Shown here one piece after another: positions 5,279 to 38,015 of a stretch of DNA of 61,816 nucleotides (position 1 is its first letter; each line of letters opens with the position of its first letter). The translations under genes and the position numbers were made by a program. Source of the DNA: a virus (Duplodnaviria > Heunggongvirae > Uroviricota > Caudoviricetes). The notes under the pieces are model-generated. The model was not told where the DNA came from and made no database searches. It saw only the letters and a program-made list of their open reading frames with translations. The stretch lies in IMG/VR virus record IMGVR_UViG_2740892042_000003; one strand, given 5' to 3'.

Positions 5279-6211
5279 CTATTCGATTTTTTTAACCATG
5301 TAGTTACGTCGTGATGTTCCTAATCTTTCATTGTGAATCTCAGAAACGCTTACTACGAGCGATATTCGTTCACCAACTTTATATTTACTTTGAATTTCTC
5401 CTAACATATCAATCGGATAAGAAGCCTTTATTTTTCCAAGCTCGCTTGCAATCTCCAATTTCCCGTACATGGATAAAATAGCAAGTTCGCCTGATATATG
5501 CTCATCCGGTAGCTGAATGACCTTCGTTAAAGCTAAGCGAGCATTCAGTTTTTTTATATCTTCTGAAGAAATTGACACTTGTCTGGTACCATCACTTAAA
5601 GGTCCAATCCAAGTAAGATCAAAGTTAAGACTATATTTTTCGCACTCATTTATGATGTTTTTTAGGTTAGCTGTTGATTGCGAACCAATTTCGGCAATTT
5701 TAGCCGTGAATGTTTCTTCATCAATGGATGAGAGTAGTGCAAAAATCTCCTTAACAGCATGACTGGATACTGTTTCGATGAGCTCGCAAGAACCAGTAGA
5801 AAAAGTAACACCTAACTTCGTCGAACCTGGACGCAAGTCTGCCAATCTCATGTCTAATGATTTTTTAACATCAATCGGCACACGACTAGAATCTTTCCCA
5901 GATCCAAGTCGGTAAACTGCTTTCTGTACAAGGGATGCGAGATTACCTGAAATTACAGATAGAATATCTAACGGAATAGACCCGAAATCGACCAAAACAC
6001 CTTTTAATCTCAACTCCATGAAATCACGTAAAGGATGTTGGTTATCGATTGCACGTTGTCTCTCTCGGAGATCGCTCAGATGGGAGTCAAGTGATCTAAA
6101 TATAATGTCATCAGCAAATGATCTCCCCTTATTTTGAGCAAGCAGATCCACATCGCGTTGAATGAACGCAATTCGCTCCTTGAGGGAGTTGAATGTTTTT
6201 TCTTCGCTCAT
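5279..6211 (-). CDS. hypothetical 310-aa protein, distal gene of repressor-linked two-gene operon
   Basis: long ORF, no recognised domain; start ATG overlaps stop of upstream ORF (ATGA); followed by terminator. Confidence 0.7.
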   Translation of the reverse strand: MSEEKTFNSLKERIAFIQRDVDLLAQNKGRSFADDIIFRSLDSHLSDLRERQRAIDNQHPLRDFMELRLKGVLVDFGSIPLDILSVISGNLASLVQKAVYRLGSGKDSSRVPIDVKKSLDMRLADLRPGSTKLGVTFSTGSCELIETVSSHAVKEIFALLSSIDEETFTAKIAEIGSQSTANLKNIINECEKYSLNFDLTWIGPLSDGTRQVSISSEDIKKLNARLALTKVIQLPDEHISGELAILSMYGKLEIASELGKIKASYPIDMLGEIQSKYKVGERISLVVSVSEIHNERLGTSRRNYMVKKIE

Positions 6212-22726: not shown

Positions 22727-22760
22727 CAGGTTACGGGGCGGAAGGCGCGCGGGTTTTCGC
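22727..22760. other. helper prophage cos site with divergent cosN
   Basis: flanks match lambda cosQ/cosN/cosB (cgggtcctttccggcgatccgacaggttacgggg ... cgcgggttttcgctatttatgaaaattttccgg) but central 12 nt read gggcggaaggcg instead of lambda gggcggcgacct. Confidence 0.6.
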
Positions 22761-23470: not shown

Positions 23471-26451
<2,981 letters not shown>

Positions 26452-26528: not shown

Positions 26529-26581
26529 GTGTATTGCAATGTGTATTGCAAATTGGCGATCGGGATGGGTGTGTATTGCAA
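26529..26581 (+). repeat. integrase arm-type repeats (left end of island)
   Basis: gtgtattgcaa at 26529, 26541, 26571, directly upstream of island int. Confidence 0.55.
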
Positions 26582-26599
26582 ATCTCTTGAGGGCTTTTA

Positions 26600-30370: not shown

Positions 30371-30670
30371 ATGGAAATGAAAAATTCTGGCTTTATTGCT
30401 AGCGGCCCCGCTCGACCTGAATTTATGAACGGCGATATTTACCGCGATAAATACGGCGGCACGGTAACGATTAAAGGCGTGGCAGAACGGCGCATCACTT
30501 ACCGCCGTGAGGGGTATAGCTATGACTGCGTGATGCCTGTTTATCAGTTCCGGCGTGATTTTTCCCTGGTATATGCCGCACCCCGCAGTAAGCCCATCAG
30601 CAGGGAAAAAGCGTGGGGAAATATCCAGAAAATGAAAACCATGATTAACGGATTCAGAGGTAAAAAATGA
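30371..30670 (+). CDS. hypothetical protein
   Basis: 99-aa ORF overlapping primase start. Confidence 0.4.
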   Translation: MEMKNSGFIASGPARPEFMNGDIYRDKYGGTVTIKGVAERRITYRREGYSYDCVMPVYQFRRDFSLVYAAPRSKPISREKAWGNIQKMKTMINGFRGKK

Positions 30671-32418
30671 AACTGGCACCGAACTTAAAAAAACAGCCAC
30701 GCGACAGACTGACAGAGATAATCATCTTTGCAGGTAGTGATGCGTGGAGCCATGCGAAAGAGTGGCAGGAATGGGCGGGTAAACATATTGCCGCCGACGA
30801 TGTGCCGCCTGTCGTGTTGGCTGATGAGCAACTGAAAAACATCACCGATTACCGGATCATTGATGAAGATCGTCAGTGTGTGCGTGTTTACCGCGCAGGA
30901 CATATCACAGAGCACAGCATGACGCAGATTGTTACGTTACTGGCTGTGGCTGGAGTGAAGACCGTACACGAATACGCGGGGATTACTGACACCAGCCCAG
31001 TGGATTTATCCGACCAGTTGCCGCGACTCAAAGAGGAATGCGAGCGTGGGGAAAGCCTGGTGCTTAATCTTCCGACGAAGCAAAAGGCGCAACTTTCACA
31101 GATGGCAGACAGTGAGCGCGCGCAGCTGCTTGCCGAGCGCTTTGATGGCGTTTGTGTGCATCCGGAAAGTGAAATCGTTCACGTATGGCGCGGCGGGGTA
31201 TGGTGTCCGATCAGCACAATGGAGCTGAGCCGCGAAATGGTGGCGATCTATTCAGAGCACAGGGCCACTTTCAGCAAACGCGTGATCAATAACGCCGTTG
31301 AAGCGTTAAAAGTTATTGCCGAACCAATGGGCGAGCCGTCCGGCGATTTGCTGCCGTTCGCCAATGGTGCGCTTGACCTGAAAACGGGGGAATTTTCCCC
31401 GCACACGCCGGAGAACTGGATCACCACGCACAACGGCATTGAGTACACGCCACCAGCACCAGGGGAGAACATCCGCGATAACGCGCCAAACTTTCATAAA
31501 TGGCTTGAGCACGCAGCCGGAAAAGACCCGCGCAAGATGATGCGTATATGTGCCGCGCTGTACATGATTATGGCGAACCGGTACGACTGGCAGATGTTCA
31601 TTGAGGCCACCGGAGACGGGGGAAGCGGTAAGAGTACATTTACCCATATTGCCACCCTGCTTGCTGGCAAACAGAACACCGTAAGCGCAGAGATGACATC
31701 ACTCGATGATGCAGGAGGGCGCGCGCAGGTTGTCGGGAGTCGTCTTATCGTCCTTGCCGATCAGCCGAAATATACGGGGGAAGGCACGGGCATCAAGAAA
31801 ATCACGGGAGGCGATCCCGTTGAAATCAACCCGAAATATGAGAAGCGATTCACGACGATAATAAGGGCGGTGGTACTGGCAACCAATAACGACCCGATGA
31901 TCTTTACCGAACGGGCCGGAGGTGTGTCACGCCGTCGGGTGATTTTCCGGTTCGACAACATTGTAAGGGAGGACGAAAAAGACAAGGAATTACCGGAAAA
32001 GATAGCGGCAGAAATCCCCGTAATTATCCGCCGCTTGCTGGCTAATTTTGCTGACCCTGAAAAGGCACGGGCTTTATTACTGGAACAGCGTGACGGTGAT
32101 GAAGCTCTGGCAATAAAGCAGCAAACGGATCCGGTTGTTGAGCTTTGCGCGGCGCTGGAGTTTCTGGAGGAAGCTCGTGGGCTAATGATGGGCGGTGGTG
32201 GTGACACCGTGAAGTACACGACCAGAAACAGCCTTTACCGTGTCTATATGGCCTTCATGGCATATACAGGAAAGGGGAAATGTTTGAGCGTGAATGAGTT
32301 CGGAAAGGCTATGAGGTCAGCGGCGAAAGTTTACGGATATGAATATATTACGCGAAAAGTTAAGGGAGTCACGCAGACCAACGCAACGACTACTGATGAT
32401 TGCGATGCGTTTTTATAA
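30667..32418 (+). CDS. primase-helicase (P4 alpha/PICI Pri-Rep-like)
   Basis: 583 aa; Walker A GDGGSGKST and D5/P4-type helicase region. Confidence 0.85.
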   Translation: MKLAPNLKKQPRDRLTEIIIFAGSDAWSHAKEWQEWAGKHIAADDVPPVVLADEQLKNITDYRIIDEDRQCVRVYRAGHITEHSMTQIVTLLAVAGVKTVHEYAGITDTSPVDLSDQLPRLKEECERGESLVLNLPTKQKAQLSQMADSERAQLLAERFDGVCVHPESEIVHVWRGGVWCPISTMELSREMVAIYSEHRATFSKRVINNAVEALKVIAEPMGEPSGDLLPFANGALDLKTGEFSPHTPENWITTHNGIEYTPPAPGENIRDNAPNFHKWLEHAAGKDPRKMMRICAALYMIMANRYDWQMFIEATGDGGSGKSTFTHIATLLAGKQNTVSAEMTSLDDAGGRAQVVGSRLIVLADQPKYTGEGTGIKKITGGDPVEINPKYEKRFTTIIRAVVLATNNDPMIFTERAGGVSRRRVIFRFDNIVREDEKDKELPEKIAAEIPVIIRRLLANFADPEKARALLLEQRDGDEALAIKQQTDPVVELCAALEFLEEARGLMMGGGGDTVKYTTRNSLYRVYMAFMAYTGKGKCLSVNEFGKAMRSAAKVYGYEYITRKVKGVTQTNATTTDDCDAFL

Positions 32419-35005: not shown

Positions 35006-35389
35006 ATGCAGAATCATTACAATGACCTTAAGCCAATTGCCGAAATGATGTATCCGGATCCAGCAGTAGAGGAATTAAAGGCTATTGCTGACAAAATGCG
35101 TTTAAGTGAACGCCTTGTTGATATGAATCAGGTGATGGAACTTACTACCCTTAGCCGTCGCACATTGCTAAACCTTGAGGCTCGCGGAGAGTTCCCCGAA
35201 CGCGTACAGGTTACGGAAGGGCGTAAGGCCTGGTATTTAAGTGAAGTGATCGACTGGATAAACAATATTCCTCGATCTTCTGAATATTGCCGCGTACCTG
35301 TCCCAAAAAAGCCAGATGCGGCGCTATGCCTCAAGATTGAGCGTGTACGTCGCAATGCACGGGATGGTCGCTATAAGTTGATTGGTTGA
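35006..35389 (+). CDS. AlpA-family transcriptional regulator
   Basis: ELTTLSRRTLLNLEARGEFPERVQVTEGRKAWYLSEVIDWI AlpA-type HTH. Confidence 0.6.
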   Translation: MQNHYNDLKPIAEMMYPDPAVEELKAIADKMRLSERLVDMNQVMELTTLSRRTLLNLEARGEFPERVQVTEGRKAWYLSEVIDWINNIPRSSEYCRVPVPKKPDAALCLKIERVRRNARDGRYKLIG

Positions 35390-35445
35390 TGAAATTAGGG
35401 CCCGTTCTGGCTGGCGGGTCCTTTCCGGCGATCCGGTAGGCTACG

Positions 35446-35479
35446 GGGCGGCGACCTCGCGGGTTTTCGCTATTTATGA
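35446..35479. other. island cos site with lambda-identical cosN
   Basis: gggcggcgacctcgcgggttttcgctatttatga, preceded by cosQ-like cgggtcctttccggcgatccggtagg. Confidence 0.65.
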
Positions 35480-35590
35480 GCCTTTTTCGGGTGCTGGTGG
35501 TGGTTTTGTTGCTCGCTCTATCTCTATGAATAAAAAGGAAAAGATAAAGCCAATACACCAACCTGAAACATTACTTAAGTGGGGATATTG

Positions 35591-36133
35591 ATGAAATCGC
35601 ACCTGATGAACAAAAAAAACATGGCGCAAAGCTGCCGTGTAAGTGCGACAGCGTTCGACAAGTGGGGAGTGACTCCCGTTGAACGTAAAGGCCGCGAGGC
35701 GTTTTATGATGTTGCCAGCGTAATAGACAATCGGGTTAGCAATGCAATTAACCAGATTACAGACGACAAAGGCGAGATTGATGATGATGAACTCCTACGA
35801 GTCAGGATCAGATTGCTGACAGCACAGGCAGAGGCGCAGGAGCTTAAAAACGAGCGCGAACGCGGCGACGTTATTGATACAGCGTTTTGTATATACGTGC
35901 TTTCAAAATTGGCGAGTCAGATTTCTTCAATCATGGACAGCCTGCCGCTTGCCATGACAAGGAAGTTTCCCGACATGAAGCCGTCTATGCTGGATGGACT
36001 GAAAAAAGAAGTTATCAGAGCCTGTAACGCATGCGCAAAACTTGACGAAAACATACCGCTGATGCTGTCCGATTATCTGATGGAAACTGCCGGAAACGTA
36101 CCGGATAAGTTGCAGCCGAATAAAGATAAGTAA
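35591..36133 (+). CDS. Nu1-like terminase small subunit
   Basis: aligns with lambda Nu1 (NKKQ...; ELKN...VIDTAFCIYVLSKLASQISSIMDSLPLAMTRKFPDM vs ELKNAKESAEVVETAFCTFVLSRIAREISSILDGIPLSVQRRFPEL). Confidence 0.7.
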   Translation: MKSHLMNKKNMAQSCRVSATAFDKWGVTPVERKGREAFYDVASVIDNRVSNAINQITDDKGEIDDDELLRVRIRLLTAQAEAQELKNERERGDVIDTAFCIYVLSKLASQISSIMDSLPLAMTRKFPDMKPSMLDGLKKEVIRACNACAKLDENIPLMLSDYLMETAGNVPDKLQPNKDK

Positions 36134-36144
36134 CGTAGTACGCT

Positions 36145-36426
36145 ATGACTGAATCCGAAATACTGCGATTAATCCGCCGTGCTTGTGGAATCAGCAAGCA
36201 GCATGACGAACAGGCCACGCAGCCGGACAGCGTGACCGCAGATAATTATGTGCGTGTAGTGGCTGAGGTGATGCGCCGTGACGGTATTGAGCTTAACGGC
36301 GTGGATATGCGCAACATACGAACAAGAGTCCTTGAGTTGCTGGCATATCGTCGCCGTTCTCAACAACGGAGGGAGAGCGCGAAAAATACTTACCAGTGGA
36401 AGAAGCCGGAACGATTGCGGCGGTAA
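36145..36426 (+). CDS. hypothetical Arg-rich protein
   Basis: 93-aa ORF directly after island terS. Confidence 0.35.
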   Translation: MTESEILRLIRRACGISKQHDEQATQPDSVTADNYVRVVAEVMRRDGIELNGVDMRNIRTRVLELLAYRRRSQQRRESAKNTYQWKKPERLRR

Positions 36427-36680
36427 CTTGCTGATATTCCCGATAACGCAAAATTGCGCTGGCTGACTTGTTGCATTGCAAAAAGTTAAGCAGGAAGGCA
36501 CGGCCTGTAAGATGGGATGCAGTAAGTAGTTCAAGGCTACCTTGTGCTGGCACGCACAGTTAAGCCGTCGGTGCTGGATATCCCCCACTGGGGGAAAAGC
36601 TGGCTACATCCCTCACATCTGAGGACTGATAACGCGACATTGCGCTGGCTGGCAAAGTGCAAAATTGCACGATGGCCTAA

Positions 36681-36817
36681 CCCATTGATTATTTCGAAAA
36701 CCTGCAATGCAGGAAATCGGGGAAGTAAGCCTAAGCTATTGATTGTTTCGAAAACCCCCATTGGGGGATGTCGGGAAAGTAAGACTAACCCATTGATTCT
36801 TCCACAATCCTCAATTT
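36681..36817 (+). repeat. three direct repeats near island right end (candidate TerS/cosB-like binding sites)
   Basis: cccattgattatttcgaaaacc, gctattgattgtttcgaaaacc, cccattgattcttccacaatcc, each near a G5/C5 hairpin. Confidence 0.45.
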
Positions 36818-37140
36818 GAGGAGGCCGGAACGTCTACATAGCTGCATCGCCGTAATGATGATTCAGCCCACCAGTCAAATCAGCACAGCAACGACAGAAT
36901 AGCCCGACACAGAAAAACCACGAATATGGGGTTTTTGTTATGACATGGTCATGATGACCACTCATACAAAACAGGTAAAGCCCACCAGCCTGATTAAAGG
37001 TTAACCGGAAAAAAGCCAGGTATCCAATCTCGATATGGGGATCCCTATATCGACATTAACGCCCACTAAAACTGTGCATATATGCATAGAAAAAGCATCC
37101 ACCAGCTTTATGACGGATGCCGCTCATCTTATAAATAATC

Positions 37141-37162
37141 GTGTATTGCAGTGTGTATTGCG
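37141..37162 (+). repeat. integrase arm-type repeats (right end of island)
   Basis: gtgtattgca gtgtgtattgcg, same motif as left-arm repeats. Confidence 0.55.
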
Positions 37163-37235
37163 ACTCCTTTAAACGATAGGTCTGAGCATTCGTAATGTAC
37201 TGTTTTTAAATTTTATTTTTTCCTGTCTTTTCATA

Positions 37236-38015
37236 AAGGCGATGTATGCCGCCACCATTGAGAGTGAGCTGGATACGCAGTCAGCGATGGATTTTATTCT
37301 GGGCGCGAACAGTAAGGAGCAGCGGGACAAGCTGACCGGCTGGATTGGTGAAATTGCCGCGTATTACGCCGCAGCACCGGTCCGTCTGGGAGGCGCAAAA
37401 GTGCCGCACCTGATGCCGGGGGACTCACTGAACCTGCAGACGGCTCAGGACACGGATAACGGCTACTCCGTGTTTGAGCAGTCACTGCTGCGGTATATCG
37501 CTGCCGGACTGGGTGTCTCGTATGAGCAGCTTTCCCGGAATTACGCCCAGATGAGCTACTCCACGGCACGGGCCAGCGCGAACGAGTCGTGGGCGCACTT
37601 TATGGGGCGGCGAAAATTCGTCGCATCCCGTCAGGCGAGCCAGATGTTTCTGTGCTGGCTGGAAGAGGCCATCGCCCGCCGCGTGGTGACGTTACCTTCA
37701 AAAGCGCGCTTCAGTTTTCAGGAAGCCCGCAGTGCCTGGGGGAACTGCGACTGGATAGGCTCCGGTCGTATGGCCATCGATGGTCTGAAAGAAGTTCAGG
37801 AAGCGGTGATGCTGATAGAAGCCGGGCTGAGTACCTACGAGAAAGAGTGTGCAAAACGCGGCGATGACTATCAGGAAATTTTTGCCCAGCAGGTCCGTGA
37901 AACGATGGAGCGTCGTGCAGCCGGTCTTAAACCACCCGCCTGGGCGGCTGCGGCATTTGAATCCGGGCTGCGACAATCAACAGAGGAGGAGAAGAGTGAC
38001 AGCAGAGCTGCGTAA
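37236..38015 (+). pseudogene. B: portal protein B, C-terminal 257 codons
   Basis: MYAATIESELDTQSAMDF... matches lambda gpB residues 277-533; 276 + 257 = 533. Confidence 0.85.

Follow-up and report, generated by a model that had tools for sequence, protein, structure and literature searches.

Tandem roi-derived units near the right end of a helper-embedded satellite island: a possible array of Roi/IHF operator mimics

Roi of phage HK022 reportedly recognises a sequence inside roi itself, close to a binding site for integration host factor (IHF), and IHF is said to stabilise the binding of Roi. The lambda ori iterons also lie inside a gene, gene O, and covary with the specificity region of its protein among lambdoid phages. 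Among satellites, the late promoters of P4 carry binding sites of Ogr/Delta, the activator of the helper P2. The known contacts between satellites and helpers are either protein-protein (Stl with phage proteins, Rpp with TerS) or activator-promoter (P2/P4). To our knowledge, the sensing of, or interference with, lambdoid helpers by Gram-negative phage-inducible chromosomal islands (PICIs) upstream of AlpA is poorly understood. The present study describes a short tandem array in a satellite island within a lambdoid prophage (IMG/VR record IMGVR_UViG_2740892042_000003); the whole stretch of 61,816 nt is referred to as the window. The three units of the array were copied from a segment of the phage gene roi. 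We consider, with moderate confidence, that they are captured, non-coding cis-sites that would form a Roi/IHF operator mimic acting as a sensor or a sponge.

A site inside roi has been known since 1996, and satellites with sites for helper regulators are known from P2/P4. What appears to be new is a tandem, multi-allelic array of a helper gene's probable internal operator that recurs across PICI families. The units resemble the HK022 site in that they are homologous to roi nt ~122-175, sharing its IHF core consensus as well as the position of the palindrome. In contrast, they are extragenic, non-coding and tandem, represent three allele classes, have perfected palindromes and reside in a satellite, and their binding by Roi is predicted. 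As in P4, cis-sites for a helper regulator would couple the satellite programme to the helper. However, the P4 sites are upstream activator sites in defined promoters with one specificity, whereas no promoter was found for the array, which copies the interior of a helper gene and is multi-allelic with IHF sites. The lambda ori iterons share with the putative roi site the location of a DNA-binding protein's sites within its own coding sequence, but Roi is not a replication initiator, and inspection of the sequence adjoining the array revealed no evident AT-rich unwinding element. Direct repeats are present, and the island primase gene lies 4 kb away; mapped origins of Gram-negative PICIs lie with primase and single-stranded DNA-binding protein (SSB) genes (PMC10111431, citing Fillol-Salom 2018). 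The array is not described in the study on helper-embedded PICIs (HE-PICIs; Tommasini, Mageeney & Williams 2023, PMC10111431), which also mentions neither Roi, Rha nor a hairpin, and no description of such an array was found in the literature on PICIs with Roi, IHF or antirepressor sites.

Anatomy and roi origin of the array

A repeat search identified three head-to-tail units of 54 nt at 36675-36836 (Tandem Repeats Finder: period 54, score 164). Unit 2 is 80% and unit 3 is 61% identical to unit 1. Each unit has a perfect IHF core consensus (minus strand), followed by a spacer of 10 bp and a perfect 13-bp palindrome (6+1+6) that differs per unit (Table 1). A conserved box (CTAAnnnATTGATT..) is present in each unit, with the palindrome at a fixed offset after it. 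The preliminary description of this DNA, made from the sequence alone, had reported three direct repeats of about 22 bp at 36681, 36735 and 36796. Three repeats are present, with small coordinate shifts: the box exists, but it is the conserved 5' part of the 54-nt unit, and the third start is 36789, while the first two stand. The 22-mer CCCATTGATTATTTCGAAAACC had 2 matches in the window at up to 3 mismatches (0 in 100 shuffles), and the degenerate core CATTGATTNTTYC had 5 (1.06 expected), 3 of which were inside the array. Two G5/C5 hairpins had also been noted; these were found at 36582-36594 and 36755-36767, and the second is the palindrome of unit 2. The palindromes of units 1 and 3, at the same offset, had been missed. 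The three matches of the array to the IHF core consensus WATCAANNNNTTR are the only ones in the 10.85-kb island and represent 3 of 7 in the 61.8-kb window. The suggestion that the cluster might comprise IHF or other regulatory sites fits the presence of a perfect minus-strand consensus core in each unit.

Searches of E. coli genomes and a phage collection revealed the origin of the units. Outside islands, they matched only within lambdoid-phage genes annotated as roi, 'antirepressor KilAC' or 'DNA-binding protein Roi', in every case in antisense orientation. In local alignments, unit 3 matched phi330 roi at 48/50 positions (nt 122-171), unit 2 matched VT2-Sakai-type roi at 48/53 (nt 123-175), and unit 1 matched Stx2a_WGPS6 roi at 37/40 with a 3-nt (one-codon) gap (nt 128-170); a CTGCAATGCAG core is common to unit 1 and HK022 roi. 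Each unit corresponds to an 18-codon slice of roi, and each slice comes from a different allele family. We regard both the anatomy of the three-unit array described above and its origin from a roi segment as solid. A coding reading of the units was excluded by the stops, frameshifts and lack of a common start codon in the minus-strand frame of other islands; the frame is open across the units of the window because each is 18 roi codons. ToxI-like repeats of a type III toxin-antitoxin system were also rejected: no open reading frame of at least 45 aa lies between the array and attR, and those of 40-44 aa there are without annotation.

We examined the donor segment in a sample of 84 roi genes. 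Roi proteins have a Rha-type wHTH domain at the N-terminus, with a weak Phage_pRha match, and an ANT/KilAC domain at the C-terminus; no solved Roi structure was found. The copied slice encodes a variable stretch, residues ~41-58, just past the putative recognition helix, and diversity was 0.16-0.19 at nt 121-180 versus 0.01-0.04 at nt 421-720. An IHF core is present at nt 153-165 in all sampled alleles but one, and in four reference roi genes it is the sole IHF core consensus of the gene. At nt ~128-144, 8-13 bp 5' of the IHF core, is a 13-bp palindrome that belongs to one of the three classes found in the units. In the whole genome of HK022, the palindrome CTGCATTGCAG is unique, and the other IHF-consensus matches occur only beside int by coordinate, in the presumed attP region. 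No coordinates for the Roi site were given in papers citing Clerget & Boccard (1996). The palindrome together with the IHF core is the only candidate in the gene for the Roi site, and the copied segment is most likely the place within roi at which Roi and IHF bind. The residues of the Roi recognition helix vary with the palindrome class (K-I/V-S, K-Q-S and K-R-T). Two further observations concern the donor gene. Its alleles (L129-L208) have two hypervariable stretches, at nt 61-210 and 301-390, which correspond to the N-terminal helix-turn-helix (HTH)/wing region and the linker, and the ANT domain is nearly invariant (0.01-0.04). Moreover, the variable wing of Roi and its putative operator are encoded in the same DNA.

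The array as a candidate Roi/IHF operator mimic

Among 19 distinct island units and phage alleles, 98.2% of palindrome arm positions were complementary; three of the six pairs changed on both sides, which was reached in 0 of 500 shuffles, and the outer CC/GG and inner A/T positions were invariant. The consensus positions of the IHF core were invariant or nearly so, and three of its four N positions varied. The palindrome of unit 2 is perfect, whereas that of the closest phage allele is not (CCACCATTGGGGG; CCACCA..), possibly because the mismatched position falls in a Val codon (GTG) of the Sakai allele. The differences between units and the closest phage alleles avoid the IHF consensus and the palindrome arms.

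Direct observation covers the anatomy, the roi homology, the IHF consensus, the covariation of the palindromes and the distribution among PICIs. Building on these, we propose that the palindrome is the operator of Roi and that the island copies would bind both Roi and IHF, with downstream effects. When a roi-carrying lambdoid phage enters lytic growth, Roi and host IHF would come together on whichever satellite unit or units match, and the three palindrome classes would make one island responsive to three Roi specificity types. The bound units might then (a) block or switch the transcription that runs out of the island at its right end, which leads to a Q-family gene in some PICIs and, in the island of the window, across attP to int after excision. 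Alternatively, (b) they might titrate Roi from the phage after replication of the island.

An alternative reading of the same homology is that the units form an antisense-RNA array, transcribed with the rightward late operon of the island or by read-through from the late promoter of the helper, which silences or destabilises three classes of roi mRNA. The units run antisense to roi and are 90-96% identical to it across 50-53 nt, every island gene lies on the plus strand, and the orientation relative to upstream genes is the same in every island in which it may be judged. No terminator-like site was found from the orf93 stop to the array; the sole call, at 36670-36687, overlaps the junction between the left module and unit 1. 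A race of escape and counter-escape would also yield a multi-allelic array. However, the nearly invariant 3' two-fifths of roi (diversity 0.01-0.04) would be a more economical target, because one unit would cover all alleles. Unit 2 deviates from its target so as to perfect the palindrome, and the mismatches avoid the IHF consensus positions. A promoter scan identified no sigma-70 promoter in or 5' of the array, and an Rfam gathering search of the whole window gave no match; an E-value search of 36380-37260 returned a chance STnc310 match alone (E = 4.5). Furthermore, expression of the island late operon would be expected to follow that of roi, a delayed-early gene. Since the variable part of roi was copied, several versions are needed, which fits the mimicry of a specificity operator and not generic antisense silencing. 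A DNA site is favoured over an antisense RNA for this reason, and also because the palindromes are perfect even where the phage allele is not, the allele differences spare the IHF consensus and palindrome arms, and no promoter or RNA family was found. We consider antisense silencing unlikely.

The palindromes may instead function as structural hairpins in RNA or single-stranded DNA, such as stabilisers of a 3'-untranslated region, processing sites or priming signals, independently of Roi. The array folded better than its shuffles on both strands (z = -4.05 and -3.17), the stem positions covary, and a variant in L214, CCTTAATTTGAGG, keeps its pairing on the plus strand solely as a G-U pair. However, the folding signal is strand-symmetric, as palindromes predict, and therefore does not discriminate. 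The stem centre is 1 nt and no T-tract follows. The unit palindromes do not combine the GC-rich stem, 3-8-nt loop and T-tract of intrinsic terminators, and none was called as a terminator; the only call inside the array, mentioned above, is a different and weak stem. Hairpins would leave the invariant adjacent IHF consensus and the origin from a coding gene unexplained, and no Rfam family matched. This reading appears very unlikely to us.

The palindromes might also be sites for an island or host protein (the 93-aa protein encoded by orf93, an AlpA-type HTH protein or BRO-N) together with IHF, rather than for a phage Roi. The palindromes of the units and of the adjacent left module would then constitute a regulatory region of the island, and roi would merely carry the same kind of site. 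The linkage of orf93 to the array in several PICI families is consistent with this proposal, as are the palindrome family of the left module itself (RYGCAAA..TTTGCRY) and the lack of roi in the enclosing prophage and in a strain with the same array. On the other hand, a single protein does not require three classes that mirror phage alleles down to their spacer variants, and some arrays lack orf93 (L004, L232 and L233) or have only a truncated relative of it (L003). We regard this proposal as improbable.

Several points weigh against an operator mimic of Roi. Roi binding to the units is its predicted step, and the palindrome and IHF core are the putative Roi site. Some roi alleles (L206 type) have no such site. 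The covariation between recognition helix and palindrome involves tightly linked codons and only ~4-7 independent alleles. No roi gene was found in the window, and the prophage enclosing the island has none. Strain A0 34/86 carries an identical array and gave no second match to the array query, so that no roi of these classes is present in its genome; the relevant Roi would accordingly need another phage as its source. In addition, the array has the same orientation as the island genes 5' of it in judgeable loci (the window, L003, L004, L234 and L209-L230) and could therefore be transcribed into RNA antisense to roi. Palindromes whose centre is a single nucleotide could equally well form a hairpin with a 5-bp stem and a loop of 3 nt.

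Distribution and evolution among islands

We saw 31 distinct arrays with one to three units each. Where more than one class was present, the order was always TGCA, CCCCA, CTCAA; a further palindrome class, CCGCCAaTGGCTG, was present in L268 and L271. The block of left module and units is conserved, and its flanks are unrelated. The array lies near the right end of several PICI families; its carriers include HE-PICIs (in portal and capsid-E genes), a clpS-side PICI, a capsid-forming PICI (cf-PICI) at fis, dinD PICIs and vat/PerC islands. In dinD PICIs, it lies just 5' of a Q-family antiterminator gene. The left module with unit 1 was detected in 478 of 5426 complete E. coli genomes (~9%), in which it was never annotated. 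A scan of the genome collection with the pattern ATTGATTNTTYCN{25,45}ATTGRTTNTTYC yielded chance matches in AT-rich genomes only. The array is a useful marker for the right ends of PICIs. In L001 (NZ_OZ547038.1, 9236-14616), the same portal gene holds a 4-kb island remnant with a partial SSB gene, capsid, decoration, HTH and terS genes, orf93 and the array, and without integrase and primase genes; arrays therefore survive in decayed islands.

The island units follow the details of phage alleles, including a one-codon indel (L233 versus WGPS6) and spacer variants, which points to repeated exchange with phage roi genes. The single-unit arrays L247, L250 and L258 reach ~20 nt further into roi. 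The same features, namely allele details that include the 3-nt indel and variable copy boundaries, would be expected if the units were recombination patches with no regulatory function, i.e., short tracts of homology, left behind by or used in recombination between satellites and the lambdoid nin region, that were kept by descent. The capture of helper DNA by PICIs is known (PMC10111431). However, the sole part of roi ever copied is the 54-nt segment, in tandem and from different alleles. The palindromes and IHF positions are intact or even improved in a non-coding context, and the block is invariably joined to the same left module, amid flanks that are otherwise unrelated, and occurs in ~9% of E. 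coli genomes. Non-functional patches are, in our opinion, distinctly unlikely. A wider proposal, which we hold only tentatively and consider rather unlikely, is that PICIs maintain an evolving, multi-allelic operator-mimic array that tracks Roi specificity alleles, serving as a decoy or sensor at the DNA level with cassettes exchanged with roi.

The gene orf93 usually, though not always, lies upstream of the array. Neither Pfam nor a sequence comparison with the PDB gave a match for it, and phrog_1561, the PHROG family to which it belongs, is of unknown function. It lies directly 5' of the array in HE-PICIs and also in the fis cf-PICI, which has an unrelated terminase (L234, 2204-2485); L003 carries a truncated relative of 53 aa at 5709-5870. 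orf93 may be a functional partner of the array.

Island context and significance

The window is a lambdoid prophage with a Nu1-type terS (22925) and gpA (23445). A 10.8-kb island splits its portal gene: the reading frame stops at ~26404 and resumes at 37242, and a 13-bp identity block, AAGGCGATnTATG, is present at both points (26392-26404 and 37236-37248). The island encodes, in order, a tyrosine integrase, an AlpA-type HTH protein, a Bro-N protein, a D5_N/DUF5906 primase, SSB, a lambda E-like capsid protein, a D-like decoration protein, a second AlpA-type protein, a small terminase and the 93-aa protein, all on the plus strand. It is inserted in, and has the same orientation as, a helper late gene, carries integrase and AlpA genes, and has the doubled TGTATTGC motif flanking the attP core; the motif also occurs at the left side of the island (26529-26590). 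The island fits the HE-PICI class, with the zone order int/AlpA/Bro/primase/late, and the portal insertion, co-orientation, zone order and doubled attP motif are likenesses to the HE-PICIs of PMC10111431. The TGTATTGC doublet at the right side, together with the attR core, marks the true att region, which lies ~300-400 bp right of the array. The cluster was placed correctly in the preliminary description, between the island terS/orf93 (35579-36426) and attR.

That description had also raised the possibility that TerS of the island binds the cluster as cosB-like sites. Its three direct repeats and IHF-like site give the cluster a superficial resemblance to the R3-I1-R2-R1 arrangement of lambda cosB, and both there and in PICI cosB repeated protein-binding boxes (putative ones in the array) and an IHF site lie near a small-terminase gene. 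The Pfam Nu1 match of the island small terminase spans its C-terminal half only, and its N-terminal domain is unlike Nu1. An IHF site among boxes is indeed present, as three perfect WATCAANNNNTTR cores, but an IHF site by itself does not make a region cosB. The cosB of lambda-like phages and of PICIs is found within ~50-165 bp of cosN, and altering the interval between them by as little as 3 bp causes a severe defect (PMC9026076; PMC6739421); R3 of lambda-type cosB occupies about bp 50-65 counted from the cohesive end, and the spacing is critical (PMC9026076). The island cosN has lambda-like cosQ/cosN flanks. The array starts 1.2 kb from it, on the other side of terS and past orf93, which indicates that the array is not cosB. 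Within 36000-37600, all cosN-like matches have 3 mismatches; the exact cosN is found only at 35446-35457. Elsewhere in the island the unit box is not matched, and it shows no similarity to the cosN-proximal sequence (35458-35578). The array is also carried by PICIs with unrelated packaging genes (P27-type TerS/TerL in L234) or without terS (L003/L231), and its units derive from roi and not from any cos sequence. We therefore consider a cosB role extremely unlikely. As a separate observation, the island cos (35445-35463) is the canonical lambda GGGGCGGCGACCTCGCGGG, and the cosN region of the prophage (22735-22752), GGGGCGGAAGGCGCGCGGG, has five substitutions in the 12-nt lambda cohesive-end sequence; the cos of the satellite is consequently mismatched to that of the enclosing prophage. 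Directly 5' of the island cos, a gene for a 127-aa AlpA-domain protein (35006-35389) takes the position of Rpp relative to cos in EcCICFT073-type PICIs; the island nevertheless has its own TerS.

The left module always abuts the first unit. Two attgcgctggctg motifs in the preliminary description proved to be a 24-nt direct repeat (36442-36465 and 36628-36651, 92% identical), the second copy of which opens the module. The consensus of the module is ATTGCG(C/T)TGGCTGGCA(A/G)AGTGCAAA(A/T)TTGCACGATG(G/A), and left modules showed no significant similarity to roi in local alignments. The 186-bp segment delimited by the two 24-mers in the window is facultative: it is also present in L003 and L214 and absent from L209, L210, L228 and L234, and in islands without it, copy 1 of the 24-mer joins the left module directly.

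Further observations were made on this region. The left module contains two palindromes of one family, ACGCAAAATTGCGT and GTGCAAATTTGCAC, with centres 26 bp apart; members of the family occur at 36446-36459 and 36657-36670 of the window, at 6180-6225 of L003, at 2785-2860 of L234 and in L209. A paralogous module with other palindromes (CCCAAAATGGG and GTTGCAGATCTGCAAC) lies 3' of the array in L234 and L209 and represents a second set of covarying dyads. The motif TGGCTG-N5-(T/G)TGCA, with the sigma-54-like spacing GG-N10-GC, is located at 36455-36472 and 36641-36658 and also occurs in L003, L004 and L234. This spacing is kept in all arrays seen, and the resemblance could be due to chance. Two palindromes that separate the array from the integrase arm-type sites, one with arms of 16 nt (AATCTCGATATGGGGA/TCCCTATATCGACATT) at 37026-37057 and another, CTGTGCATATATGCATAG, at 37072-37089, may be accessory sites of attP. 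An element with an A-tract, a hairpin and a T-tract, AAAAACCACGAAT(A/C)TGGGGTTTTT, is 3' of the array in the window and 5' of it in the dinD PICI L003 (5940-5965); given this difference in order, the array block has apparently moved relative to the element.

Table 1. Features of the array and of its surroundings in the window
Feature	Position	Strand	Remarks
Unit 1 (TGCA class)	36675-36728	+	Antisense copy of roi nt ~128-170, Stx2a_WGPS6/HK022 allele class
Unit 1 IHF core	36678-36690	minus	AATCAATGGGTTA
Unit 1 palindrome	36701-36713		CCTGCAATGCAGG; arms/centre written CCTGCAaTGCAGG
Unit 2 (CCCCA class)	36729-36782	+	Antisense copy of roi nt 123-175, VT2-Sakai/HK629-type
Unit 2 IHF core	36732-36744	minus	AATCAATAGCTTA
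Unit 2 palindrome	36755-36767		CCCCCATTGGGGG; arms/centre written CCCCCAtTGGGGG
Unit 3 (CTCAA class)	36783-36836	+	Antisense copy of roi nt 122-171, phi330/JLK-2012/Lahn2-type
Unit 3 IHF core	36786-36798	minus	AATCAATGGGTTA
Unit 3 palindrome	36809-36821		CCTCAATTTGAGG; arms/centre written CCTCAAtTTGAGG
Left module	36628-36674	+	Second 24-mer, TGGCTGGCAAAG, palindrome GTGCAAAATTGCAC (36657-36670), GATGG
24-nt direct repeat, copy 1	36442-36465	+	GATAACGCAAAATTGCGCTGGCTG; contains palindrome CGCAAAATTGCG
Facultative segment between 24-mers	36466-36627	+	186 bp including the second 24-mer
Solitary palindrome in facultative segment	36582-36594		CCCCCACTGGGGG; 160 bp 5' of unit 2 palindrome
Motif in facultative segment	36611-36624		CCTCACATCTGAGG
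Weak terminator-like A-tract/hairpin/T-tract element	36913-36940	.	AAAAACCACGAATATGGGGTTTTT; downstream of array; no call in terminator scan
Doubled TGTATTGC motif of HE-PICI attP (arm-type site)	37140-37162	+	Basis: sequence and PMC10111431, 'Attachment sites'
attR core	37236-37248		AAGGCGATGTATG
orf93	36145-36426	+	phrog_1561, unknown function; context, possible array partner
Island terS	35579-36133	+	
Island cosN	35446-35457	+	GGGCGGCGACCT; exact lambda cohesive-end sequence, directly 5' of island terS
Island primase gene	30667-32418		4 kb from array

Roi/Rha proteins are widespread, including in Shiga toxin (Stx) phages, and their function is barely known; the array offers a handle on Roi. 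The idea is directly testable with three proteins and three 54-bp DNAs. If the array is an operator mimic, a regulator's own operator, copied from three allele families, would represent a mode of satellite-helper contact by DNA mimicry. On the wider and rather unlikely proposal of an array that tracks Roi alleles, the hypervariable wing of Roi and its self-encoded operator would represent the part of the phage in an arms race with satellites.

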